Positions 2,882 through 64,000 of a DNA stretch of 64,000 nt are shown here, in pieces (the stretch's first letter is position 1; the number at the start of each line of letters is the position of its first letter). A program made the translations under genes and the position numbers. The notes below the pieces were generated by a model. It was not told where the DNA came from. It saw only the letters and a list, made by a program, of their open reading frames with translations, and made no database searches. The stretch comes from Candidatus Poribacteria bacterium (GTDB lineage Bacteria; Poribacteria; WGA-4E; PCPOR2b), in assembly GCA_965223985.1 (NCBI GenBank), contig OZ245030.1, forward strand, positions 3,282,930-3,346,929, in the 5' to 3' direction.

Positions 2882-3751
2882 ATGTCCCAATCATCCCTTA
2901 TTCCCATTAAAACCCGCGATGAGATTGAAGTTGAGAAGTTGTTAATAGCGATTCAAGCGAAGCGGGATCAGGTCGCCGAAATGACCCTTGAGATAGAAGA
3001 ACTCAAGCTGGATATACGTAGATTTGAGGGCGAATATAATGCTCGTGTTGGACGATTCTATATAGAGCTGGACAAAGTTGAACTCTTGACAAAGGAACAT
3101 CGGTTGCGACTGCGCTTATTGAAAGAAGGCTTATCCACCCATAGCCCAGAAATGGAAAAACGGATTGAATCCTGTTTCCGTTCGGAACGCGAGCGGTTGG
3201 CAGATTATGAACGAGGAATAAACTCGGATGAAAAGACTTTCAAACAATCGAAAGCCCAGTTGCTTCCGCCGGATCAGATGAAGCAACTTCGCGGGCTTTA
3301 TCTGAGACTCGCAAAGATATATCACCCGGACAAAGCGAATTTTGATGACGATCAAGATGAACGGAAACAGATGATGATGTTGATAAATCGTGCGTATGAA
3401 AATCTAGATATGCAGACCCTCAAGCGGATAAACATCAAGATTGGGTCGGAAGCCGAGTCAACTGCGGAGACAGTATCACAGAGAAGGAAACGGTTAACAC
3501 AGGAGATAAATAGGTTGATGCGTGCCCAAGGTGAGTTGCGTCTGGAAATCAATAGAATTAAATCAAGCAAAACTTATCAGTTCAAGCAGGAAGTTGGGCG
3601 AGCCAGTGAAAGTGGGATGGATCTACTAACAAGTCTCGCTAAGGATTTGCAGCACAAAATTAATGCCAACAAACGGCGACTGGCGGATGTGATTGAACGG
3701 TTCCATCAATTTAGTAGAAAAGTTATGGATAATCGGGCAAACGTCCTCTAG
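2882..3751 (+). CDS. J-domain (DnaJ-like) protein with N-terminal coiled coil
   Basis: HPD motif in LAKIYHPDKANFDD. Heptad-rich N-terminal half. Confidence 0.6.
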   Translation: MSQSSLIPIKTRDEIEVEKLLIAIQAKRDQVAEMTLEIEELKLDIRRFEGEYNARVGRFYIELDKVELLTKEHRLRLRLLKEGLSTHSPEMEKRIESCFRSERERLADYERGINSDEKTFKQSKAQLLPPDQMKQLRGLYLRLAKIYHPDKANFDDDQDERKQMMMLINRAYENLDMQTLKRINIKIGSEAESTAETVSQRRKRLTQEINRLMRAQGELRLEINRIKSSKTYQFKQEVGRASESGMDLLTSLAKDLQHKINANKRRLADVIERFHQFSRKVMDNRANVL

Positions 3752-4689: not shown

Positions 4690-4992
4690 AATACTTCAAA
4701 TTTCATACATTAAAAACAGTGAAGGGGAGGAGTAGGTCGCCTAGGCTTGACAGAGCGGGAAATTCACGGGCTAAGAGATTTCCTCAAACGCTACGACTGA
4801 ACGTCGCCCTGGAGTTGCTAGCTTGAAAACACCAAGTAGGGTTAGCCGGTTGATGTCCGTCATTGCATCCCAATGAGTGCCCTTTTTTGACAGCAAGGCT
4901 TAACAGAGAGGGAATTGGAGTGGTACCGCGGTAAGATCTTCGAAAGAAGCCCTTTTCGTCTCCAAGGTGGAACGAGAAGGGCTTTTTTGATT
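4690..4992 (+). ncRNA. T-box riboswitch leader upstream of ilvBNC
   Basis: T-box sequence AATTGGAGTGGTACCGCGG at 4913-4931 (consensus AAnnnGGGTGGnACCGCG). It is followed by the intrinsic terminator AAGCCCTTTTCG...CGAGAAGGGCTTTTTT at 4947-4992. An upstream loop carries a possible CUC-A (Leu) specifier ('ttcCTCAaac'). Confidence 0.6.
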
Positions 4993-5114: not shown

Positions 5115-6794
5115 ATGGAACCCATGCGAGGTGCAAACCTCCTTATTGAAAGTCTTAAACGAGAAGGGGTCGAGTACATTTTTGGTCTTAACGGGGGCGC
5201 GGCGATGCCGATTTTTGATGCTCTCTACGATGCACCCGATATCAAGCTCATCCCCATGCGGCACGAACAAGGCGCAGCGCACGCTGCTGATGGCTATGCG
5301 CGCGCAACAGGTGTCGTGGGTGTTGTGCTTGCCACTTCGGGGCCCGGTGCGACGAACCTTGTCACCGGAATTGCCACCGCTTTTATGGATTCCATTCCAA
5401 TGGTGGCGATCACAGGACAGGTTTTTACCCATTTGATGGGCAACGACGCCTTCCAGGAATGTGATATCATTGGGGTAACGCGTCCCGTCTGCAAGCACAG
5501 TTTCCTAATCAAAACTAGCGACGAGGTTGCGGATATCGTGGCTGAAGCCTTCCACATCGCTAGTACGGGGCGACCGGGCCCTGTTGTTGTTGATTTTGCA
5601 AAGGATGCACAAATAAGTGAGTCCATTTTTTGCTATCCGGAGTCGGTCAACATTCGTGGCTACAAACCCAGCGTCGATGGACATCCGCGCCAAATCGCCA
5701 AAGCTGTTGAACTGATCCACAACGCCAAGCGTCCCATAATCTATGCAGGGGGGGGCGTGGTTCTTTCCGAAGCTGCCAAGGAGTTGCGTGAATTTGCGAT
5801 CAAAACCGGCATTCCAATAACAGTAACGCTCATGGGACTTGGGGCATTTCCCGAAACTCACCCACTTTCAATGGAAATGCCCGGTATGCACGGTTCCTGT
5901 TGTGCAAACTATGCGTTTACGGACTCCGATCTCATTGTTGCAGTGGGTGCGCGGTTCGATGACCGGGTCACAGGAGAGTTGAAAAAATTTGCACCGAAGG
6001 CGAATAAAGTTCATATTGACATTGATCCGTCCTGCATCGGCAAAAATGTCGCGATTGATGTGCCAATTGTCGGTGATGCCAAGCGTGTATTGGCGAAGAT
6101 GAACGAGCTCGTACATCACGTAGACATTGAGCCCTGGAGACGGCAAACTGATGAGTGGAAGGAAAAATATCCCTTCGAGTATCATCAAAGAGGGGATAAG
6201 ATTATGCCGCAGTATGTGATTCAACAAATCTATGAGATCTATCCCGATGCAGTAATCGTAGGAGATGTGGGACAACATCAAATGTGGGCAGCGCAATATT
6301 TCAAATTTACCCAATCACGTCAGTGGTTGAACTCGGGAGGACTGGGAACGATGGGATTCAGTTTGCCTGCAGCAATCGGTGCCCAACTCGGATGTCCCGA
6401 CAAAACGATTGTCAACATCAATGGCGACGGTTCATACATCATGACGATTCAGGAACTCGTCACTGCTGTCACCTTGAAACTTCCGCTCAAAATTTTCATC
6501 ATTAACAATATGTATCTCGGTATGGTGAGGCAGTGGCAAGAACTCTTCCACCAAAAACGGTATTCAGCCGTTGATTACCACGATAATCCCGATTTTGCGC
6601 TGCTTGCTCAAGCGTTTGGTGCAATAGGTCTCCGTGTCGAGCGAATTGAAGATGTTCGACCAGCATTGGAAAAAGCAAAACACATCAATGAGGGACCCGT
6701 TGTTATTGACTTCATTGTTGATGAAGATGAGAATGTGTTCCCAATGGTCCCAGCTGGTGCGGGGCTCGGTGACGTTATACGAGGTTTAGCCTAA
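5115..6794 (+). CDS. ilvB: Acetolactate synthase large subunit
   Basis: 559-aa ORF with the thiamine-diphosphate motif GDGSYIMTIQELVTAV and FAD/ThDP-enzyme architecture. Overlaps the ilvN start. Confidence 0.9.
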   Translation: MEPMRGANLLIESLKREGVEYIFGLNGGAAMPIFDALYDAPDIKLIPMRHEQGAAHAADGYARATGVVGVVLATSGPGATNLVTGIATAFMDSIPMVAITGQVFTHLMGNDAFQECDIIGVTRPVCKHSFLIKTSDEVADIVAEAFHIASTGRPGPVVVDFAKDAQISESIFCYPESVNIRGYKPSVDGHPRQIAKAVELIHNAKRPIIYAGGGVVLSEAAKELREFAIKTGIPITVTLMGLGAFPETHPLSMEMPGMHGSCCANYAFTDSDLIVAVGARFDDRVTGELKKFAPKANKVHIDIDPSCIGKNVAIDVPIVGDAKRVLAKMNELVHHVDIEPWRRQTDEWKEKYPFEYHQRGDKIMPQYVIQQIYEIYPDAVIVGDVGQHQMWAAQYFKFTQSRQWLNSGGLGTMGFSLPAAIGAQLGCPDKTIVNINGDGSYIMTIQELVTAVTLKLPLKIFIINNMYLGMVRQWQELFHQKRYSAVDYHDNPDFALLAQAFGAIGLRVERIEDVRPALEKAKHINEGPVVIDFIVDEDENVFPMVPAGAGLGDVIRGLA

Positions 6795-49723: not shown

Positions 49724-49735
49724 ACATAAAAACTC

Positions 49736-49852
49736 CCGGCAACGACCTACTTTCCCACGAGGTTGCCCTCGCAGTATCATCAGCGCTGGAGGACTTAACT
49801 GCCGTGTTCGGAATGAGTACGGGTGTTTCCCCTCCGCTATTGCCACCGAAAG
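49736..49852 (-). rRNA. rrf: 5S rRNA
   Basis: The reverse complement reads ...GGTGGCAATAGCGGAGGGGAAACACCCGTACTCATTCCGAACACGGCAGTTAAGTCCTCCAGCGCTGATGATACTGCGAGGG... Confidence 0.85.
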
Positions 49853-49956
49853 AAATTCAAATATCTCTTATAAAGAAAATCTCTACTGCAAAACTATTGC
49901 TGTAATTAACAATTTGACAACTTTATAGATTTGAAGATTTACCCCAATACGAAGAT

Positions 49957-52974
<3,018 letters not shown>

Positions 52975-53043
52975 ACAGTTATTGAAGTAAATCATCAAAT
53001 CTATACAATTGTCAAAGATCGCCGTCTGCAAAAGTTGCAGACA

Positions 53044-53119
53044 AATGGAGATGAGCGGAGTCGAACCGCTGGCCTTCTACGTGCAAAGCAGATGCTCTCC
53101 CAAACTGAGCTACACCCCC
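53044..53119 (-). tRNA. tRNA-Ala (UGC) in the 16S-23S spacer
   Basis: Reverse complement: GGGGGTGTAGCTCAGTTTGGGAGAGCATCTGCTTTGCACGTAGAAGGCCAGCGGTTCGACTCCGCTCATCTCCA. The G3:U70 identity pair is present. Confidence 0.85.
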
Positions 53120-53131
53120 ACACGGGTATGG

Positions 53132-53205
53132 TGGGCTTATCTGGACTCGAACCAGAGACCTCGCGCTTATCAGGCGCGCGCTCTAACCGCCTGAGCTATA
53201 AGCCC
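53132..53205 (-). tRNA. tRNA-Ile (GAU) in the 16S-23S spacer, with CCA encoded
   Basis: Reverse complement: GGGCTTATAGCTCAGGCGGTTAGAGCGCGCGCCTGATAAGCGCGAGGTCTCTGGTTCGAGTCCAGATAAGCCCA(CCA). Confidence 0.85.
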
Positions 53206-53307
53206 CAACAACAAGCGCTGCAAGAAAGCTAAATAGAATATCAGACATAACCAATCAAACGAGCTAAACATACCACATGTTAATCAACACGTGACAGTCT
53301 ATATAGG

Positions 53308-54869
<1,562 letters not shown>

Positions 54870-55029
54870 CCAATAAAAAATTTTTGCTAATTCATTGAAT
54901 TAGCAATGACGTAACTAGCTTTAACAAGCTCTAAACTCGATGTTTGTAAAAACATCTGGGCATGTCACAATAAACTATTTAGCTTTCAAAGAGCGCATGT
55001 TATCTACCCTGCCATAGCAGAGTGACGAA

Positions 55030-55058
55030 AGTATAACATGCGAGGTTTTCGCTGTCAA
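55030..55058 (-). promoter_or_regulatory. rRNA operon promoter (TTGACA-17-TATACT) with an AT-rich UP-like element upstream
   Basis: Minus strand: gaatttatattgattttaccTTGACAgcgaaaacctcgcatgtTATACT, ~155 nt upstream of the 16S 5' end. Confidence 0.55.
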
Positions 55059-55470
55059 GGTAAAATCAATATAAATTCAAGAACTGTTAAACCGTCTTGA
55101 CAACGGGAAATTGAGACGCGTAATTAGAGAACCAACCCACTACACAATACACATAAAAACAGTCGTGCAAGAATCGAGGTATCCATTACATTCTACGGTT
55201 TGTCATATAATCTCAACCCCATTTATTTCCCGCTTATTGAAGCGAAGTATCGCGTAAAAAAGGTCGCCAAAACCAGTGGATGCACTAACCTGATGCGCTT
55301 TCTAATTATATAATGTTAATGGTGCTAGTTTAATGTAGAGTGTAATTACTCCCAAAAGCTGTACAGTTGAATAAGGTGGAATTCCGACTGGCAAAGTTGA
55401 AGATAGAACTCGACTGGCTTCAATAAAACTCAACGGCTCCGTTGAACAGGAATGCCGTTGACCGTCGGTT

Positions 55471-56274
55471 GTGAGACAATGTCAACTAATGGCCTTGGCT
55501 AGACCCTCGTTCTATTACCGCCCTGTAGTAGAATCGCAACAAAATCTACTCTATATGCGTCTAATAGACGAGCAGTACACCAAGACGCCGTTCTACGGGG
55601 TGCCTCGGGTAACTGCATGGCTTCGCTCTCAAGGACATATTGTTAATCCGAAACGGGTGGAGATTTCTATCGCAGTCGCTATTCGCACCCTTGATCGGTT
55701 AATGCGGAAGATGGGATTAGCTGCTATCTATCCTAAGCCCAAGACCTCCGGCATGGGCTAACCGTCGAAAACGTATCCGTATCTGTTGAAGGAATTAAGT
55801 ATCATCAGACCGAATCAGGTCTGGGCAACAGACATAACTTATATTCGCTTAAGCAGTGGTTTTGCCTATCTGGTAGCCGTTATGGATTGGTTTTCCCGTT
55901 ACGTGTTGTCATGGGAGCTTTCAAACTCACTAGATGTATTCTTTTGTCTGTCAGCTCTCGAACGGGCACTTAGTCAATCGATTCCTTTGATACTTAACAC
56001 CGACCAAGGGAGTCAGTTTACTTCTGATGCTTTTACGACTCGACTTGAAGCGTCTAACATCGCCATCAGTTGGGACGGCAGAGGCAGAGTATTCGACAAC
56101 ATCTTCATTGAGCCGCTCTGGCGCAGTGTCAAGTATGAGGAGGTTTATCTCAATGACTATGACTCGGTTAACACAGCTTCGTGTCGATTAAGTGACTATT
56201 TCAACTTTTACAATCAAGAGCGGTTTCATCAATCGCTCGACTATCGCACACTACACCAGGTGTATTTCCAATAA
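55471..56274 (+). mobile_element. Degenerate IS3-family insertion sequence remnant: orfB (HTH_21 + DDE rve integrase) interrupted by an in-frame TAA, with orfA almost entirely missing
   Basis: LMALARPSFYYRP...VNPKRVEISIAVAIRTLDRLMRKMGLAAIYPKPKTS, then TAA (55762-55764) in the same frame, then KTYPYLLKELSIIRPNQVWATDITYI...DQGSQFTS...E. Only ~12 codons of an orfA C-terminus (EFRLAKLKIELDWLQ*) remain upstream. Confidence 0.7.
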
Positions 56275-56350
56275 TCTCAGGCGTTGAAACCTGACCAAAT
56301 TGGCACGGGTTTTCCACCTTATATCTTATTCATCGCTGTCTATAGAATGG

Positions 56351-56690
56351 GGGTAAGTTCAGGTTGGGTTGAGATCAACTGAGCGAATAACGACCGCGAT
56401 AGAAATCCAATAAACACCTAGCGAAACCCAACGATCAAGCGACTGAATAAGGAGCACGATAGCGATTTTAGACGATAGTTTCTGTAGTTCTTCATAAAAA
56501 TCTTAGGCGATAGCTTTCTCCAGTTTTTTCCGCTCGCGGCCCCCGTTCGACACATTCCCAATCATAAAAAAAGCGTTGGGTATCGCAGCACCGTAACAAA
56601 TTTAAAACGAATTCAGTCCCTGAAACCAATCGTTCCTATGTAGCAACTATTTGCGAAACCGCTCTACCCAACCTACGCCCCCTGCAAAAC
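56351..56690. repeat. Cluster of repeat family R and MITE-like GTAGCGAAACCCAACG copies between the IS remnant and the SRAP gene
   Basis: aggttgggttgagatcaactgagcgaat... (56351-56530). tagcgaaacccaacg (56386) pairs with gcgttgggtatcgc (56576). cgctctacccaacctac lies at 56655-56672 (minus orientation). Confidence 0.6.
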
Positions 56691-56748
56691 ACTGAAAGTT
56701 TTGTTTTCCCATCCCGCCGAATTGCCTCTACATTTGTGAGGTAGTTCT

Positions 56749-57420
56749 CTAAACCGGCAAAATGCACTCCGCCCTATCATTCCTCGGCTGATTCACCAGA
56801 CGAGAAACCGCGTAGGCTGTCATCGCATCGGCGGGATATGGCTTGAGAAGGTGATTCAGCTCCGCGGGCGGTTGGTTGTTTGGCTCTAGCCACAGGTCAT
56901 ACGCATCATAATCTAGAATCACCGGCATACGATGATGAATCTGCTCCAGCATCTCGTTGGGTGGACACGTGAGGATTGTGCATGACAGAACCGCATCCGC
57001 GTCTCTCGACGGTTGCCACTGCTCCCACAGCCCCGCGAAGGCGAAAGGTTTCTCCGACGCCATGCGGATGTAAAACGGCGTTTTTGCGCCGCCTCCCGGC
57101 TCCTTTCGCCACTCGTAATAACCGTCCGCCAAAATGAGACATCGCCAACGTCTGTACGCAGTTCGGAATGACGGTTTCTGCGAAAGTGCCTCGGAACGTG
57201 CGTTAATCATTCGATTTCCGATTGTGGGGTCTTTTGCCCACGACGGAATAAGTCCCCACCGAAACAAATCTATTTTGCCGGGATTGTTGTTAGCAACGAC
57301 AGCAACGTTCTGTGTGGGTGTAATGTTGTAACGCGGGGTCAGTTGGTCGGGCAGCTCGAATCCGGGAAAGGTTTCTGTTAAGCTGGTAGGACTGGCGGAA
57401 AGCGTGAATCGTCCACACAT
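56749..57420 (-). CDS. yedK: SOS-response-associated peptidase (SRAP; YedK/HMCES family abasic-site DNA-protein crosslink protein)
   Basis: MCGRFTL (Cys2 nucleophile after Met removal), YNITPTQ, WGLIPSWAKD, INARSE and H-containing C-terminal motifs. AAGGAGG ribosome-binding site. The ATG at 57420 is preferred over the upstream TTG. Confidence 0.85.
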   Translation of the reverse strand: MCGRFTLSASPTSLTETFPGFELPDQLTPRYNITPTQNVAVVANNNPGKIDLFRWGLIPSWAKDPTIGNRMINARSEALSQKPSFRTAYRRWRCLILADGYYEWRKEPGGGAKTPFYIRMASEKPFAFAGLWEQWQPSRDADAVLSCTILTCPPNEMLEQIHHRMPVILDYDAYDLWLEPNNQPPAELNHLLKPYPADAMTAYAVSRLVNQPRNDRAECILPV

Positions 57421-57459
57421 TTTTCGTCTCCTCCTTTTCAATTGTCCAAGTTATATTCA

Positions 57460-57489
57460 ATTATAAATGCCGGCGCCGCCTTTTGTCCA
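57460..57489 (-). promoter_or_regulatory. Promoter of the SRAP gene (TGGACA-18-TATAAT), duplicated at ~60255-60285
   Basis: Minus strand: TGGACAaaaggcggcgccggcattTATAAT. The same architecture is conserved upstream of the truncated SRAP copy. Confidence 0.45.
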
Positions 57490-57731
57490 GTGTTTGGGTA
57501 TAATAGCAACTCTCGTTAGAGTCGTCGCAACAATGTTTGTATCTTTTTCGTACGCCAACAGACGATAAACATGAAATCGCATGAAAATATCGTGCTGATT
57601 TAGTGTGGACGTTTGGGTTGGCTATTGCTTACAATGTCCCTTATACACCGTGAACGAGTTCGTAGGTACGGAACTCCAATATTTCAAAATTCAGAGAGGA
57701 TTTCAATGAATTCGAGAGCGAAATTTGGTAC

Positions 57732-58076
57732 ATGGCTTTTGGCGCCGCGTTGGTCTTTCTTGGAATGTTCGGCACGTTGATGTCACCACTGACCGCAGAA
57801 ATGGATAAGTTCGGCGAGATTGAGTGTACGCGGTTGACAGTTGTTGGTAACAACGGCGAGCCTGTGGTAGAGATTGGGCTAGGTGTATATGAAGATGGCG
57901 GGGAGGTCGAAGTGCTGAGCACAGATGGACGAACTTTGGTCTCTCTCGGTGTGGCTGAAAGCGACGCCAGCGAGTCGCATCACGGTGGGTATGCCCTGGT
58001 GCGCGGGAAGTCCAAGAAAGGACAGGTGCGGATTAGCACGCTTCGCTACGACGGCGGCAGGCATAGTGGACATTAG
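57732..58076 (+). CDS. Small membrane-anchored protein, paralog 1 (conserved DKFGEIECTRLTVV motif)
   Basis: N-terminal transmembrane helix (AFGAALVFLGMFGTLMSPLTA), then DKFGEIECTRLTVVGNNGEPVV. Paralogous to 58773-59024. Confidence 0.45.
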   Translation: MAFGAALVFLGMFGTLMSPLTAEMDKFGEIECTRLTVVGNNGEPVVEIGLGVYEDGGEVEVLSTDGRTLVSLGVAESDASESHHGGYALVRGKSKKGQVRISTLRYDGGRHSGH

Positions 58077-58269
58077 GAAAGCCGACGAGAATCACCGCTA
58101 GCCAGACCACATGGCAACCTCTAGTGCGAACGGACTGTGGACAGGACGCCACCACTATGAACCCTGATTCGGCGGAACGCGTCGCTGTGGCTAAGTTAAG
58201 ATATGCGAAGTAAAGTGCAATATATCCGCACTCTATGAGTTAATAATCACTTAAAGAAGGAGTCTTGAT

Positions 58270-58554
58270 ATGAATGTTCGCAGGGTAAGGGTAGCATTTA
58301 CGAAGATTGCCACGTGTATAGGATTCAGCTTGTTAGCGGCAACGTGGATTTGCAATTTTGTGTATGAGTACCCCCCCCCGCATAATCACTATGCGAACTT
58401 TCAATCGGTTGGCGCTATGTTTGGTCTGTTTGTTGGCGCAAGTTGGACTATCAAACGGAAGGAGGTGCGGGAAGCCTATTGTCGGACCGTCCGTACTAGG
58501 ATTGTGGGTGTTTTTGATTGGCATGGCATGGAGGATGAATACAGGAGATGTTGA
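58270..58554 (+). CDS. Small membrane protein gene containing a C9 homopolymer. A +1 C would fuse it to the overlapping 58358-58693 frame, giving a 141-aa multi-transmembrane protein.
   Basis: AAGGAG ribosome-binding site. C-run at 58371-58379. Both the upstream frame (transmembrane helix IATCIGFSLLAATWICNFVY) and the downstream alternative frame (LALCLVCLLAQVG...IAPLIIAAGMFVGAV) look membrane-protein-like. Confidence 0.4.
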   Translation: MNVRRVRVAFTKIATCIGFSLLAATWICNFVYEYPPPHNHYANFQSVGAMFGLFVGASWTIKRKEVREAYCRTVRTRIVGVFDWHGMEDEYRRC

Positions 58555-58772
58555 ACGACTCATTGAGGGGATTGCTCCGTTGATAATCGCTGCAGGAATG
58601 TTCGTTGGGGCTGTGCGCGCATTGGCACGTGCAAGAGGACAGAGCTTAATCCAGTTTCTGTCTGGATTATATTCTAGATTGTATAGAGATTAACTTACTA
58701 ACGACAAGGAGAAAAGCAAAGTTTAGTATTCAGAATTGGCAGCAGAAACTGGTTTATGCGGGCGTCGGAGCG

Positions 58773-59024
58773 TTGTTACTGTTTATCGGGATGCTACTAT
58801 CACCGGTTACGGCGCAAAGGGATAAGTTCGGGGAGATTGAGTGTACGAAGTTGACGGTTGTTGATACGGCGGGGAAGTTGCGGGTGGTTCTGAGTGCCAA
58901 AGAGGAGGATTTCACAGACTATTGGTTTACAGACAACGGAGGAGTATCTATTGTTGCCTTGGATATCGTCGAATGCGGTAACGCTGCAGTCAGCACGTGG
59001 CATAAGAACGGCAATAGACAGTGA
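58773..59024 (+). CDS. Small membrane-anchored protein, paralog 2 (DKFGEIECTKLTVV motif). Probable non-ATG start (TTG/GTG).
   Basis: ...GVGALLLFIGMLLSPVTAQRDKFGEIECTKLTVVDTAGKLRVVL. There is no in-frame ATG upstream. Confidence 0.4.
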   Translation: MLLFIGMLLSPVTAQRDKFGEIECTKLTVVDTAGKLRVVLSAKEEDFTDYWFTDNGGVSIVALDIVECGNAAVSTWHKNGNRQ

Positions 59025-59312
59025 TGGGTGCTAGGACCGGAAAAACAGATATCGAGTTGAAGAATTAAGGAGGTTCGAAGCGTAAGGGTATCGTGTTCGT
59101 CTTGCTGGCTAGTTTTGCGCGATCTTAGGCGCGACTATATGAAAAACCTAGGTCGGGGGGGTGGAGTCCCGTTTCCTTGTTGTTAGCCTCTCTCGGACGG
59201 GCGCATAAAATTTTAGCCAGTTGCGTGTGAGTCAACCGGGGATGCCACGCACGCGCAGCTGGGGGACATCAACCGATAACAGCATCCTATTCATCGTGGG
59301 CGCGACAGCGCT

Positions 59313-59567
59313 TTAATAGACACAACTGCCAAGCCGATGGTGACGAGGTAGACACCGTAGCTCGACGCGAAAGCTAAATGGGCTAATGGTATTGTAAATA
59401 ATGGCGGTTACCGCAAAGCCCCACGCCCAATCGAATTTTTTTTGGACGTAAGCCTGAACAGCGAGATAGGCGAATGTTGCACAGCAGAGGACGTGAAGAA
59501 GGTTGTTGTAGGTGTGTCCATATTTCAAATAAGGATGCTTATAGGCGATCAGGAACATCAGAATCAC
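59313..59567 (-). CDS. Small hydrophobic protein, possibly frameshifted near its C-terminus
   Basis: MFLIAYKHPYLKYGHTYNNLLHVLCCATFAYLAVQ...WGFAVTAIIYN. The +1 frame continues with a membrane-like ...LAFASSYGVYLVTIGLAVVSIKAL. Confidence 0.25.
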   Translation of the reverse strand: MILMFLIAYKHPYLKYGHTYNNLLHVLCCATFAYLAVQAYVQKKFDWAWGFAVTAIIYNTISPFSFRVELRCLPRHHRLGSCVY

Positions 59568-59740
59568 GACTGCTTGGGGAGCCCATATGATTCTTTAACG
59601 AGTTATTTTCATGGGTCTTTCCTTTCAACGGGATGTTTTTACGTCTTTGCCAAGGAAGCAAAAATACCTGTTACAGTTTACCGCTTTCTCGATATAATTC
59701 TACTTAGACATAAAAACCTACTTTGAAAGGAGGAGAGTAA

Positions 59741-59872
59741 AATGATGAGGCTGATGAAACTTCGGCATCTACAGCTAATGACCTCAAATACACTCAAGTG
59801 GCTTGACTCACTTAATGGGAAGAGCGGAATTGAATATGAAGTCGTACGCATTTTGAAGCGAACCAAGATATA
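59741..59872 (+). CDS. 43-aa ORF with a strong Shine-Dalgarno sequence (GAAAGGAGGAGAGTAAAATG), antisense to the tail of the truncated SRAP ORF
   Basis: MMRLMKLRHLQLMTSNTLKWLDSLNGKSGIEYEVVRILKRTKI. Perfect ribosome-binding-site spacing. Below the ORF-track size cutoff. Confidence 0.3.
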
Positions 59873-59917
59873 AAGGAGATTCAAGCTGGACTATATGACC
59901 GATTCGGTCATATGTGT

Positions 59918-60200
59918 CGGGCTTTTTACGAATGTACGCAGTTCGGAATGACGGTTTCTCCGCCAGTGTCCCGGAACGTGCGTTAATCATTCGATTGCCG
60001 ATTGTCGGGTCTTTTGCCCACGACGGAATGAGTCCCCACCGAAAGAATTCTATTTTACCGGGGTTGTTGTTCGCAACGACAGCAACCTCTTGGGAGGGTG
60101 TAATGTTGTAACGCGCCGTCAATTGGTCGGGTAGCTCGAAATCGGGAAAGGATTCTGTTAAGCTAACGGTGTTGGCGGAAAGCGTGAATCGTCTGCACAT
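59918..60200 (-). pseudogene. 5'-duplicated, truncated SRAP copy (first ~94 codons only; Gly3 changed to Arg), directly downstream of dnaE2
   Basis: MCRRFTLSANTVSLTESFPDFELPDQLTARYNITPSQEVAVVANNNPGKIEFFRWGLIPSWAKDPTIGNRMINARSGTLAEKPSFRTAY. Homology to the full gene then ends abruptly. ~90% nucleotide identity between 59935-60287 and 57155-57493. Confidence 0.65.
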
Positions 60201-60302
60201 TATTCGTTTCCTTCTTACAAAAACGGGGTCGCTATTGTGTTGTCCGGATGATATTTCATTATAAATGCCAGCCGCGCCGTTTGTCCAGTGTTTCGTTGAA
60301 CA

Positions 60303-63300
60303 TTAGGTGAAAGACAGTTCCGCAAACGATTGCGCTTGGATGCTGATTAACTCACCCTCACGCTGTAAGATTCCGTAGACATACACAAACGGGGACAGCT
60401 TAAAGATTGACCGATATTTGGCATAGATATCCGGGGAGATAACTACATTGAGCAATCCCGACTCATCTTCCAGGGTCATGAAGGAAACTCCATTCGCCGT
60501 AGCGGGTTTCTGTATGCAGACCACCAGTCCCGCAACGCCCGTCCTAACGCCATTTCGCAGCTTTCTTAGCGCGTCCTGCCGCCGCACTTCGCTATGCAGC
60601 TTGGATCGAAGCAGCTCCATGGGGTGCGCGTCTATCGAGAATTGCTGCGCGCTGTATTCCCACGTTAGCTTGCCCCACGGACTGAGTTTTGGCAGCGGCG
60701 GGGCTGTGAGTTTCGGATCGATAAGCTCCCTGCCTCGCCACTGATCCGCAATCCACAGTTGCCACATCAATTGCCGGCGTGACAAACCGAAACAATCGAA
60801 CGCTCCCACCCCGATTAAATTCTCTATATTAGCGACATCGAGCTTGGTCTGCGCAACGAAATCTCTCAGCGACTTGAAGGATTCGCGCTCACGAGCGTTC
60901 ACAATTGACTGGGCTTTCGCTAGACTGATCCCTTTGACACAGATTAAGCTCAGACGTATACCGTCGGTTTTCTCGTCAGTTTCGATGACGCATCTGAGGT
61001 TGCTGCGATTCACATCGACTTGCAAGCATGTTATCCCGTGGCGGCGCGCATCGTCCACGATAGTGCGCGTGGGGTAAAACCCAAGGGGTTGGTTGTTGAT
61101 TAACGAAGCGACGTAAGCGGCGGGGTAGTAGCGCTTAAGCCATGCGGACTGATACGCGAGATGGGCGAATGCCAAGGCGTGAGATTTGCAGAATCCGTAG
61201 CCCGCGAACGCCTTAATACAGTCGAAAATCTTAATGGCATCGCTCTCCGACACTCCGTTTCGGACAGATCCTGCCACGAAGTCGGCTCGCATCTTCGCCA
61301 CGGCTTTCTCAGAGCGTTTCGCGTCGAGTTCGCGCCTTAGATTCTCCGCCTCGCCGGGAGTGTAGTCCGCAATCGTGGTAGCCACCTGCAGGATTTGCTC
61401 TTGAAATAGCACCACACCTAGCGTTTCCTCAAGAATTTCTTCAAGTCGCGGATGTGGATATTGCACCGCCTCAAGTCCCTGCCGCCGCCGAAGGTATGGT
61501 GTGACCATGTTGCCCTGCACTGGACCCGGTCTAATGATTGCGATTTCGGCGGCGAGTTCCGAGAGATTTCTCGGCTTGGTGCGCGGCAGCGTCTGCATTT
61601 GCACGCGGGATTCTATCTGGAACAGCCCCACCGTGTCCGCCTGTCCAATCATATCGTACACCTCAGGGTCGTCGGCTTTAATTTCGGCGAGGTTTATTTT
61701 GATATTGTAGGCATCGGCAATCAGTCTAAGGCATTCTCTGACTACGGCAAGCATGCCCAGCCCTAGCAAATCCACTTTGATAAGCCCCGCATCTTCGACC
61801 ATGTCTTTGTCCCATTGGCACACGCGGCGGTTCGGCATGCGTGTGGGCTCGAGCGGCACTAGCTTCGTGAGCGCGCACGAAGTGATTATCATTCCGCCCG
61901 GATGCATGGATATATGGCGAGGAACGCCAATTATCGCATCCACCTGCTCTCGGAAATGCCGCCACTTCTTTTTCTTGGTATAGTGCCCATACTCTTGCAG
62001 CTCCTCAACTTTGCGAAATGCTGGCTCTGGATTCTTCTGCCCTTCTGTGAAACGCGACATTGTCGCCAGCAGGGGCGTGGGATAGCCAAAGACCTTCCCA
62101 ACCTCGCGAATCGCCCGCTTAGCACCGAATGTGATGAACATGCAGGCTAATCCAACGTGCTCAAAGCCGTATTTGCGCCCAACATAGGTGAGGACATCAT
62201 CTCGGTCGGGCAACCGAGCGTCTCGCGCAGAGGCGAAATCCAAGTCGATGTCCGGGATCGTAGACCGCTCTTCGTTGAGAAATCGGGCGAAAACGAGGTT
62301 GTGCCGGACTGGATCGACAGTCGTAATATCGAGAAGATACGCGACCAACGAGCACACTGCAGAGCCACGCCCCTGCGCCGGGATGTTTTTGGATTGGGCA
62401 AACTTAACAATATCCCACACTATGAGGAAGTATCCGCTAAGATTCAAGCGGGTGATAAGGGTCAGCTCCTCACGCAGCCTAGAGCGAATTTCAGCAGATA
62501 TCGAATCATATTTTTTGGACAGGGCTTCCTCGCATAACATATTCAGATATGAGTCTGTGCTTTGACCGTCGGGCGTTGCGTAGTCAGGAAATCGATATTG
62601 CGTAAAATCGAGGTTGACATTGCATCGTTCAAGGATGGCGCGGGTATTAGTCAGCGCGGCGGGGATTTCGGAGAATATCAGCTGCATCTCGTGGGGAGAC
62701 TTGAGATAGCGTTCGTGGTTGATTGGGCGAATTGAATCTGATTTAGCGAGCGGGGTTTTGTGGTCAATGCAACGGAGCACATCGTGCAATCGCGCCTCCG
62801 CTTGGGTTGCATATCGCACGCTGTTCGCCGCTACATAGCCTATCGAGAAATCGTGAGCGATGCGATAGAGCGTCTTACAGAGACCGGTATCTCCAGGCTC
62901 AAGGTGGTTAACGAGTTGGATATAAAGCCGTCTTTTACCAAAGATTTGATGGTATTCATTCAGCCGTTTTCGCGCGGAATCGATTCGATTGGTTTGCAAA
63001 AGTTCCGCGACACTGCTGCTCTTTCCGATAAGGCAGATTAACCCGTCGGACAACTCGGCGATTTGCTCCACTGTCACGTGCGGTTCAGACTTATGGTCTT
63101 CTCCTCGCGCTCGCGTGATTAGCTGGGAAAGGTTCTGGTAGCCTGTTGAATCCTCGCACAGCAACAGAACCTTGTCATTAGAGTAAGAGCTGCCTCTGGA
63201 GCGCCCCACAGTTATGAGAGACCCAATTATGTATTCAAGCCCAATCTCCTTGCATTTCTTGACGAACGGAATAACGCCGTAAAGCGCATTGTCGTCTGTC

Positions 63301-63419
63301 AATGCCAAGCCATTCAATCCAAGGGTTGCCGCACGCTCAGCGAGAACTGCGGGGCACGATGTCCCGTTCAGAAACGAATAGTGGCTGTGGCAGTGGAGTT
63401 CCGCATAATCCATAACCAT
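60303..63419 (-). CDS. dnaE2: Error-prone DNA polymerase III alpha-subunit paralog DnaE2 (ImuC)
   Basis: 1038 aa. PHP domain N-terminus DYAELHCHSHYSFLNG. Polymerase core motifs LLGLGML and GxFQxES-like (VGLFQIESRVQMQ). Lacks the C-terminal tau/beta-binding extension of the replicative DnaE1. Its length is typical of DnaE2. Confidence 0.85.
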   Translation of the reverse strand: MVMDYAELHCHSHYSFLNGTSCPAVLAERAATLGLNGLALTDDNALYGVIPFVKKCKEIGLEYIIGSLITVGRSRGSSYSNDKVLLLCEDSTGYQNLSQLITRARGEDHKSEPHVTVEQIAELSDGLICLIGKSSSVAELLQTNRIDSARKRLNEYHQIFGKRRLYIQLVNHLEPGDTGLCKTLYRIAHDFSIGYVAANSVRYATQAEARLHDVLRCIDHKTPLAKSDSIRPINHERYLKSPHEMQLIFSEIPAALTNTRAILERCNVNLDFTQYRFPDYATPDGQSTDSYLNMLCEEALSKKYDSISAEIRSRLREELTLITRLNLSGYFLIVWDIVKFAQSKNIPAQGRGSAVCSLVAYLLDITTVDPVRHNLVFARFLNEERSTIPDIDLDFASARDARLPDRDDVLTYVGRKYGFEHVGLACMFITFGAKRAIREVGKVFGYPTPLLATMSRFTEGQKNPEPAFRKVEELQEYGHYTKKKKWRHFREQVDAIIGVPRHISMHPGGMIITSCALTKLVPLEPTRMPNRRVCQWDKDMVEDAGLIKVDLLGLGMLAVVRECLRLIADAYNIKINLAEIKADDPEVYDMIGQADTVGLFQIESRVQMQTLPRTKPRNLSELAAEIAIIRPGPVQGNMVTPYLRRRQGLEAVQYPHPRLEEILEETLGVVLFQEQILQVATTIADYTPGEAENLRRELDAKRSEKAVAKMRADFVAGSVRNGVSESDAIKIFDCIKAFAGYGFCKSHALAFAHLAYQSAWLKRYYPAAYVASLINNQPLGFYPTRTIVDDARRHGITCLQVDVNRSNLRCVIETDEKTDGIRLSLICVKGISLAKAQSIVNARERESFKSLRDFVAQTKLDVANIENLIGVGAFDCFGLSRRQLMWQLWIADQWRGRELIDPKLTAPPLPKLSPWGKLTWEYSAQQFSIDAHPMELLRSKLHSEVRRQDALRKLRNGVRTGVAGLVVCIQKPATANGVSFMTLEDESGLLNVVISPDIYAKYRSIFKLSPFVYVYGILQREGELISIQAQSFAELSFT

Positions 63420-64000
63420 CTATCGGCATAGCCTCCAATCGTCATGGGCAAGATCGTGGCAAACCGTTAGCTCGCGTCTAGAAGCGCACAGCTTAAAGTA
63501 AACCAGATGTTGTGGGCGTTCCGTCCACCAGTCGCCTTCGAGCTTCCAGACATCAATCACGCGGTCAAAATATAGCCACGTGTCGCCGCGTCGAATTGCT
63601 TCCGGAAACTCCATACCGCCAACTGTTTTTGACAGTATCGAAACGCGCTTGGAGTAGCCGCTGAGTTGTGTCTCATCTCCCCAAACCGTCAGCTGCTGTG
63701 CAGTGATGTCATCGGTTATTGGCGGGCCATAGAAAGTGGGTGTGGATGGGTCAACCCCTTTTCCTGACTCTGACATCATAACACCTTGCTTTCCAAACTG
63801 TCTGATTAGATCCGCCTTTTTGATGTTCGCCAACTGCCCCAAGGTGCAGAGCCCCAATCTGTCCAGACGCCGGAGAAGTTCGGCATCAATTGGCAAAAGC
63901 GAGACGCTCTGATTTGCCATGAAAGCCGGTGTTTCCTCTGATGATACGACACACGGCGCATCCGGCGCTGCGTTTTGCGCTGCGGCAAAACTGGCGAAAC
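63420..64000 (-). CDS. imuB: Probable ImuB (inactive Y-family polymerase-like mutasome subunit), C-terminal part. It either starts at the ATG at 63920 (166 aa) or continues 5' past the window end.
   Basis: The ORF stop abuts the dnaE2 ATG (TAG immediately followed by ATG at 63422-63417 on the minus strand), i.e. translational coupling in the canonical imuB-dnaE2 order. No diagnostic motif in the visible C-terminal region. Confidence 0.45.
   Translation of the reverse strand, partial: FASFAAAQNAAPDAPCVVSSEETPAFMANQSVSLLPIDAELLRRLDRLGLCTLGQLANIKKADLIRQFGKQGVMMSESGKGVDPSTPTFYGPPITDDITAQQLTVWGDETQLSGYSKRVSILSKTVGGMEFPEAIRRGDTWLYFDRVIDVWKLEGDWWTERPQHLVYFKLCASRRELTVCHDLAHDDWRLCR

Follow-up and report, generated by a model that had tools for sequence, protein, structure and literature searches.

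A truncated and an intact SRAP copy on either side of small-protein genes downstream of imuB-dnaE2 in a Candidatus Poribacteria bacterium

Genes of the SRAP family (YedK/HMCES, PF02586) lie beside the ImuB-DnaE2 mutagenesis genes in a published neighbourhood (Aravind et al. 2013, PMC3765255), to which the initial annotation of the locus described here had rightly referred it. The locus belongs to a stretch of 64,000 nucleotides (nt) from a Candidatus Poribacteria bacterium (assembly GCA_965223985.1, contig OZ245030.1, positions 3,282,930 to 3,346,929 of the forward strand), hereafter the window, in which dnaE2 is followed by a truncated SRAP copy (SRAP′), by ∼2.4 kb of small genes and by an intact SRAP gene. 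The two copies look like two old SRAP lineages, one of which was truncated later, and we lean towards the reading that the fragment is the relic of a resident, dnaE2-linked SRAP, alongside which a SRAP of a second lineage, with an array of small-protein genes, came to lie.

As in the published SRAP-mutasome association, a full-domain SRAP is found downstream of DnaE2 and a Y-family-like gene, and the relic shows that SRAP and dnaE2 were once directly adjacent. The locus differs from that association in that relatives have no imuA beside imuB, the next gene upstream being that of an M48 peptidase in divergent orientation; in that the ImuB-like protein has 269 amino acids (aa); in that SRAP has its own promoter; and in that the lineage of this species carries several near-identical SRAP copies in unrelated contexts. 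Read along the minus strand, the order is the end of the imuB-like gene, dnaE2, a promoter with ∼89 SRAP codons, the small genes, a second promoter with the intact SRAP, a broken IS3 transposase and a ribosomal RNA (rRNA) operon, so that the SRAP block is flanked by the mutasome on one side and by the rRNA operon on the other.

The two SRAP copies share a direct repeat far beyond chance. Alignment by blastn of positions 57153-57495 (minus strand; promoter P at 57460-57489 and codons 1 to ∼89 of the intact gene) with 59933-60293 (minus strand; promoter region and SRAP′ codons 1 to ∼89) gives 81.2% identity over 361 columns, with 50 mismatches and a single 18-nt gap (E = 2e-102), and a repeat search resolves the same homology into a 289-nt segment at 87% (57148-57436 against 59928-60216) and a 54-nt segment at 81% (57442-57495 against 60240-60293). 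It extends from ∼10 nt past the dnaE2 stop codon, through a sigma-70-like promoter, to about codon 89. Both copies carry the promoter TGGACA-18-TATAAT, which agrees with the sigma-70 consensus at 11 of 12 positions; that of the truncated copy, P′ (60258..60287, minus strand), is ∼15 nt past the dnaE2 stop. The duplication of the 5′ end of SRAP beside dnaE2, as first proposed, is thus real and had been placed correctly to within ∼7 nt, although the identity then given (∼90%) is too high against the measured 81-87%, and the homology reaches about codon 89 instead of codon 94. A transposon target-site duplication can be ruled out, the repeat being 361 columns long at 81% identity, with no terminal inverted repeats at 57496/59927 and no transposase between the copies.

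The arrangement is fixed in the species. An identical layout, at 97-99% nt identity, is found in L088 and L089 (ERZ25074053), in L093 (a 4.68-Mb contig, ERZ25766727) and in L091 (a JGI contig), where L numbers denote the loci and contigs compared, and the Logan contigs L081 and L082 also carry the insert at 94.6-98.7% identity. With recurrence in at least five independent assemblies, an assembly artefact is ruled out.

The open reading frame (ORF) of SRAP′ (59808-60200, minus strand) encodes 130 aa, of which the last 36 are an unrelated tail, and matches positions 1-97 of the 214 in Pfam SRAP, the C-terminal half (98-214) being missing. It begins MCRRF, as the initial annotation had noted: ATG TGC AGA encodes MCR, so that Gly3 is replaced by Arg, and this replacement is present in all strains, whereas MCGR is found in all 26 related full-length proteins and at the 13 loci compared. 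In L093 the start codon reads ATA, and no gene is called at this place. The 130-aa frame is open in the window, L088, L089 and L091, and the 89 SRAP codons are free of frameshifts and stops. Its own orthologous 130-aa fragment is 97% identical, compared with no more than 85% for the closest full-length database protein. The homology with SRAP stops at 59928, where the adjoining DNA is the T-run of a stem-loop resembling an intrinsic terminator (59886..59927, plus strand; fold −24.9 kcal/mol, z = −4.2) that would serve a 43-aa ORF on the other strand. No homology is seen across this junction, which identifies it as an illegitimate join, and the coincidence of the end of the T-run with the beginning of the SRAP′ homology would mark its position. 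P′ still looks like an active promoter and is predicted to drive a dead ORF; a pseudogene is the best-supported reading of the 130-aa ‘YedK’ call. With its truncation, its lost invariant residue, the loss of its start in one strain and an intact copy nearby, SRAP′ resembles an ordinary pseudogene beside a functional paralog. It is unlike one in keeping a consensus-like promoter and in receiving gene-conversion patches from the intact lineage; in L088 and L089 such a patch has converted the 3′ end of the relic to the full type.

The intact SRAP (56749..57420, minus strand; 223 aa) matches Pfam PF02586 over its whole length (positions 1-214 of 214; 254 bits against a cut-off of 27.1). Its N-terminus is MCGRF, and the motifs DGYYEW and IHHRMPVIL of the C-terminal half are both present. 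Exact-sequence queries with this SRAP, in forms of 223 and 230 aa, and with DnaE2 had no match in the collection searched. SRAP proteins crosslink to abasic sites through Cys2, which is exposed once the initiator Met is removed. The best SRAP matches among species representatives are metagenome-assembled genomes of Candidatus Poribacteria, and the window protein is 96-98.7% identical to copies in L084 and L085, which lie in quite different surroundings. The L093 genome has a second SRAP locus, L094, that matches the one at dnaE2 at 99.9% identity along 871 nt; the match begins 16 nt before the ATG, extends ∼180 nt beyond the stop and is sharply bounded. These two loci (L093 9985-10855 and L094 9985-10855) are 2.2 Mb apart and their flanks are unrelated, the neighbourhood in L094 being one of housekeeping genes, near DivIC and DnaA. 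Such identity indicates that this repair gene either evolves in concert at the two loci or was copied very recently. The C-termini of the full-type copies are mosaic, and judging from these comparisons full-type SRAP is a multi-copy, recombining gene, homogenised within the genome by gene conversion. The intact copy in the window is of the full type along its whole length, with no visible chimera between the lineages.

Structural context in relatives indicates which of the two copies is resident. In L001-L003, imuB-dnaE2 is followed directly by a single SRAP with no small ORFs within 10 kb, as the initial annotation had anticipated for relatives. The end of dnaE2 in L001 and L003 runs into the same −35/−10 promoter that follows the dnaE2 stop in the window, and both the stop-to-promoter adjacency and the −35/−10 boxes of P′ are kept in L001, L003 and L011. 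Because the succession of dnaE2 stop, promoter and SRAP start is the ancestral geometry, we read the truncated copy as the resident gene. No relative has a second intact SRAP beside dnaE2. The region beyond dnaE2 is variable: in the sister species (L095, OZ240245.1) homology with the window is lost exactly at the dnaE2 stop, and what follows is a 6.8-kb island and then a DUF6804 gene, with no SRAP there, while a second strain of the sister species has still other content. These differing islands point to the site just past dnaE2 as a rearrangement hot spot.

The states of individual sites separate the two copies in the same way. P′ retains an ancestral 18-nt promoter segment, as do L003, L011, L092 and L094; it has been deleted, a derived state, from P as well as from the full SRAP in L084 and the stub linked to the array in L085. 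The SRAP′ residues KIEFF, TLAEKPSF and TQEV match the outgroups, whereas the majority of the ∼20 full-type copies read KIDLF and TLSQKPSF, some of the others being mosaic. Over 88 codons the window copies differ by 12.9% (∼17 synonymous and ∼17 non-synonymous differences), with a synonymous divergence (dS) of 0.31 and a ratio of non-synonymous to synonymous divergence (dN/dS) of 0.30, and each is 18.9% from the outgroup L001. For a duplicate dead from birth, a pairwise dN/dS of ∼0.55 would be expected, probably with frameshifts too. The values observed, and the lack of frameshifts, fit a long working life followed by a recent truncation, although with small counts and active gene conversion this timing argument is suggestive, not decisive. 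The dS, the equal distances to the outgroup and the division into ancestral and derived states also speak against the duplication as it had been conceived, a single event copying the resident sequence.

The anatomy of the locus, its synteny, the direction of change at the sites compared, the damage to the genes in between and the fixation in the species are observations. In the order of events that we infer from them, and with it the route by which the array-SRAP block arrived, a single SRAP would originally have stood directly after imuB-dnaE2, an arrangement that more distant Poribacteria retain. A second SRAP, from the multi-copy lineage with its own version of the promoter and head-to-head with an array, would have been placed 2.8 kb downstream in the same orientation. 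With an intact SRAP nearby, and another elsewhere in the L093 genome, the resident copy may have become dispensable. It would then have been cut at about codon 89 by the illegitimate junction just past the terminator hairpin, and the relic would have gained Gly3Arg and, in one strain, lost its start codon. On this account the ‘direct repeats’ would be diverged homologs that still exchange short gene-conversion patches, and not a target duplication.

Several points weigh against this account. Quartet analysis against L001 weakly pairs the two window copies (7-8 sites versus 2-4), as in-situ duplication would also predict. A dN/dS of 0.30 from such small counts does not firmly exclude ∼0.55, and gene conversion blurs all clock arguments. 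No relative with both SRAP copies intact was found, nor was the 3′ half of the resident SRAP found within the window. Finally, SRAP is missing beside dnaE2 in the closest sister species, so that the evidence for ancestral adjacency in this lineage of dnaE2 comes from loci that are more distant or paralogous.

The genes between the repeats are, from their sequences, mostly damaged. The two ORFs of 114 and 83 aa, p114 and p83, had been called paralogs, and they are: they are 43% identical (E ∼5e-12) and share the motif DKFGEIECT(R/K)LTVV. In p114 (57707..58076, plus strand; the listed ORF begins at an internal ATG at 57732) one nucleotide of codon 8 is missing in all strains by comparison with the family start MNTREKFRYMAFG, and the C-terminus is divergent. 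In p83 (58719..59024, plus strand) all six assemblies have AAG in place of the ATG of the family, and the internal repeats have disappeared; its DNA is 81% identical to array genes in L084, beginning at their ATG. Both keep the transmembrane (TM) segment and the DKFGEIECT motif. We take them to be members of the family by descent that are probably not functional.

The membrane-protein gene with a homopolymer tract, and the further small ORFs that the initial annotation had listed, are all present. The former, a small multi-TM gene (58270..58693, plus strand) with a C-run at 58371-58379, was listed as an ORF of 94 aa (58270-58554); its homologs P0332-P0334 (126-171 aa) match it in frame 1 to residue ∼70 and are then colinear with the +1 frame, which suggests that the gene is probably frameshifted. 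The window has nine cytosines (C9) in this run where five other assemblies have six (C6). The additional nucleotides keep the frame and add one proline; they may reflect either true variation in length or a homopolymer error of long-read sequencing. A role of the run as a frameshift or phase-switch site is ruled out by this in-frame difference, the likely frameshift lying ∼100 nt downstream. The C-termini of P0332 and P0334 resemble, by eye only, a SHOCT-type short domain (EEIRKLAEL..G.LT..EFE.KK.ELL).

The DUF6804 (PF20619) gene (59313..59612, minus strand; listed ORF 59313-59567) encodes a small membrane protein of 114 aa that is intact in L088, L089 and L081; in the window and in L093 a TAT codon has become TAA (59595-59597). 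The window ORF scores 33.8 bits against a cut-off of 27, compared with 46.1 bits for the intact ortholog in L089, and the gene is 81% identical at nt level to that located 6.8 kb downstream of dnaE2 in the sister species L095. The 43-aa ORF (59742..59873, plus strand) has a strong Shine-Dalgarno sequence and a promoter-like site upstream (59670-59698), and is called as a gene in L081, L088, L089 and L093. Neither the p114/p83 family nor the 94-aa protein nor the 43-aa ORF has a match in Pfam or NCBIfam beyond a weak one to DUF6785 (E 0.03). A comparison of the window with L088 gives 95.4% identity for the block and 97.9% for the wider region, a difference that is consistent with relaxed constraint. 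The proposal that a small-membrane-protein module was delivered into a DNA-damage locus is not borne out, since the module is largely decayed and gives no sign that a working function reached that locus.

The small ORFs are conserved elsewhere. A profile built from p114 and p83 finds 76 proteins (E 1e-61 to 1e-10), none with a Pfam domain and all on Poribacteria-type contigs; the family has no matches on viral contigs or on JGI metagenome contigs. Intact members comprise an N-terminal TM helix, the DKFGEIECT motif, repeats of the type EHGG-x-V-x-A-x-GKDGK and a C-terminal NEYGNGAVSTWDKNGYRQ. They form two subtypes that often alternate in tandem arrays, of five genes in L084. Tandem arrays of 3-5 genes are seen at L084 10001-12863, L085 10001-11672 and L086 10001-12982, in variable islands that also contain restriction/modification, ParB-like, SocA-like and Type ISP genes. 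An AlphaFold2 model from a 44-sequence alignment has a predicted local-distance difference test (pLDDT) score of 85.8 and consists of one helix followed by twelve strands in hairpins. Its best PDB matches are OspA and its variants, which are single-layer sheets (E 1e-5, TM-score 0.45-0.5). The predicted resemblance to OspA is one of fold only, an anchor followed by a run of antiparallel β-hairpins; the sequence identity is 8-15%, the TM-score is low, and the anchor is a TM helix instead of a lipoprotein signal. Nothing in the modelled fold ties it to DNA damage.

A link between these arrays and SRAP recurs. In L084-L087 the DNA preceding the arrays shows homology to positions 57393-57731 of the window; it includes the SRAP promoter, its ribosome-binding site and a 10-codon SRAP stub. 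The distal part of the divergent intergenic region in the window (57496..57706, plus strand), with the array promoter TGGACG-18-TACAAT at 57606-57635, was identified from a promoter scan and from this homology, being 72% identical to the DNA upstream of the L084-L087 arrays. In L086 both SRAP flanks are retained and the gene body alone is replaced. Because the SRAP link recurs upstream of the arrays and the flanks are kept in L086, a unit in which SRAP and the array diverge from a shared intergenic region is ancestral in the clade; in genomes 2999761 and 4718497 the SRAP-array unit is found at another locus, by Glyoxalase/PhyH/GlnRS. Across loci the homology breaks at −75/−78, at −17, at codon 10 and at codon 89 of SRAP. 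SRAP might serve in this clade as a portable homology anchor, array blocks without an integrase moving between loci and genomes by recombining through its promoter and 5′ end and leaving stubs (89 codons here, 10 in L084-L087), an idea that we consider improbable as it stands. The divergent promoter region common to SRAP and the array might, in addition, couple the array of envelope proteins to the DNA-damage response.

Among other explanations of the locus, the one that survives best, as a tentative second choice, is a duplicative insertion, including one of the Campbell type, in which circular or linear DNA carrying the small genes and homology to the promoter and 5′ end of SRAP entered by a single crossover at the dnaE2-SRAP junction. 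The geometry is that expected from such a crossover, with direct repeats of the homology segment flanking the DNA, one gene copy truncated and the other continuing into the gene. Moreover, the outgroups lack the insert, the quartets weakly pair the two copies, SRAP copies clearly recombine, and no 3′ SRAP remnant was found. A Campbell-type event predicts, however, young repeats or a chimera, whereas the repeats here are old and diverged, at 81% identity, with a consistent split into ancestral and derived states that reaches copies in other genomes, and the intact copy is of the full type throughout. Neither the dN/dS of 0.30 nor the equal outgroup distances suit a fragment dead from the start, and the array unit elsewhere has a stub of 10 codons, not 89. 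The presence of DUF6804 downstream of dnaE2 in the sister species is a further difficulty; for the same reason the ‘2.4-kb insert’ is probably composite and not the single insert that had been thought to split the junction. Of the original duplication-insertion proposal, then, what holds is that outgroups lack the insert and have SRAP directly after dnaE2; the repeats are not fresh, and the array unit is found at an unrelated locus as well.

Site-specific integration of an island at the 5′ end of SRAP, bringing a replacement promoter and N-terminus, with later loss of the integrase, is distinctly improbable. SXT/R391 elements integrate in this manner into the 5′ end of prfC. As there, a displaced native 5′ end is found on one side of the locus and a similar, non-identical promoter and 5′ end on the other, which is the footprint expected. 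The two copies agree at each of the 27 nt that precede the breakpoint, but this run falls within EKPSFRTAY, a conserved motif. Several loci show breaks in homology near −17 and near −75 to −78 of SRAP, and L084 has a tyrosine-recombinase gene ∼4 kb upstream of its full SRAP. In contrast to SXT/R391, the locus consists of a few kb of mostly broken genes, with no integrase between 55471 and 60302, where the broken IS3 transposase is the only recombinase; the four breakpoint positions across loci define no single core site; and the small-protein family was not found on viral contigs. Least probable of all is that the truncated ORF is maintained as a functional short protein such as a regulator or decoy, for although its promoter and ribosome-binding site are intact and the frame is open at 97% identity in the window, L088, L089 and L091, it has lost half of the SRAP domain, the invariant Gly3 and, in L093, its start codon, and its unrelated tail runs into the terminator of the other strand.

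On the mutasome side, dnaE2 (60303..63419, minus strand) encodes a protein of 1038 aa that matches the NCBIfam model for error-prone DNA polymerase, NF004225, over residues 2-1036 (1025.4 bits against 939). It is 99% identical to copies from the same species, 92% to that of the sister species and ∼67% to those of L001-L003. The imuB-like gene, of which the 3′ part is in the window (63420..64000, minus strand) and the remainder passes its end, has a weak match to Pfam IMS_HHH_1, and it abuts dnaE2, directly upstream, in all relatives. In L089 (5966-6775) the ortholog matches the central part of Pol IV models only, at E ∼4e-9 and far below the cut-off, with a weak thumb-domain match. The working parts of the locus would be the imuB-like gene and dnaE2, for translesion synthesis, together with the intact SRAP, which has a sigma-70-type promoter of its own. 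OZ240245.1 carries two imuB-dnaE2 loci, L095 and L001, whose DnaE2 proteins are 92% and 67% identical to that of the window, the match in L001 lacking residues ∼679-908. That genome further has a SRAP at L001 and, at a third place (L011), a frameshifted one. The latter was considered as an equivalent of the L094 locus and rejected, since SRAP alone is common to them and the neighbours are housekeeping genes or surface proteins.

The imuB promoter (L093 ∼3110-3120, also seen in L089) has a perfect 10-nt palindrome, TAGTATACTA, over its −10 box, and in the sister species L095 the sequence AGTATACT is at the same position; the palindrome is a candidate operator. TAGTATACTA has no match in the window at up to one mismatch, and the imuB promoter shares no 10- to 14-mers with P or P′ beyond chance. 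The LexA-type operator that had been suggested as common to the SRAP and imuB promoters was not found, a weak negative, as the LexA motif of this phylum is not identified.

On the other side of the intact SRAP, a broken IS3-family transposase (55471-55761 and 55786-56274, strand unassigned) is recognised by its Pfam HTH_21 and rve domains, and directly past it is a complete rRNA operon (49734-54876, minus strand) with 16S, two spacer transfer RNAs, 23S and 5S. The right-hand neighbourhood (55471..56407) contains a pair of 35-nt inverted repeats (55662-55696 and 56373-56407), 86% complementary, where 0 such pairs are expected by chance. One arm is a 36-nt in-frame insertion within the transposase remnant, and the other is located where homology with the L094 SRAP locus stops; a 90-nt stretch that includes the latter arm (56373-56462) is present twice in L084. 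An intergenic element of ∼112 nt, 3′ of SRAP (56566-56677), has copies of ∼81% identity twice in L095 and once in L096, and also in L084 and L086; the surroundings of the copies are unrelated, and the element is perhaps a small repeat dispersed through these genomes. No meaningful match to known RNA families was found in 55000-60400. Elsewhere in the window, a T-box leader (4710-4966; 95.7 bits against a gathering score of 93) precedes a 559-aa ORF (5115-6794).

The best-supported reading, paralog replacement followed by decay at a rearrangement-prone spot downstream of the mutasome, makes this locus an ordinary rearrangement, not a new system. For annotation, it means that the 130-aa ‘YedK’ is best treated as a pseudogene and that several of the small ORFs are probably broken. 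Two by-products are of wider interest. One is a Poribacteria-restricted family of TM-anchored proteins with predicted β-hairpin repeats, arranged in tandem arrays and without a Pfam model. The other is SRAP itself, of which a genome appears to carry several copies kept alike by gene conversion, an unusual state for a repair gene that is generally regarded as single-copy. Were SRAP indeed a homology anchor, it would give islands a means of mobility without a dedicated recombinase.

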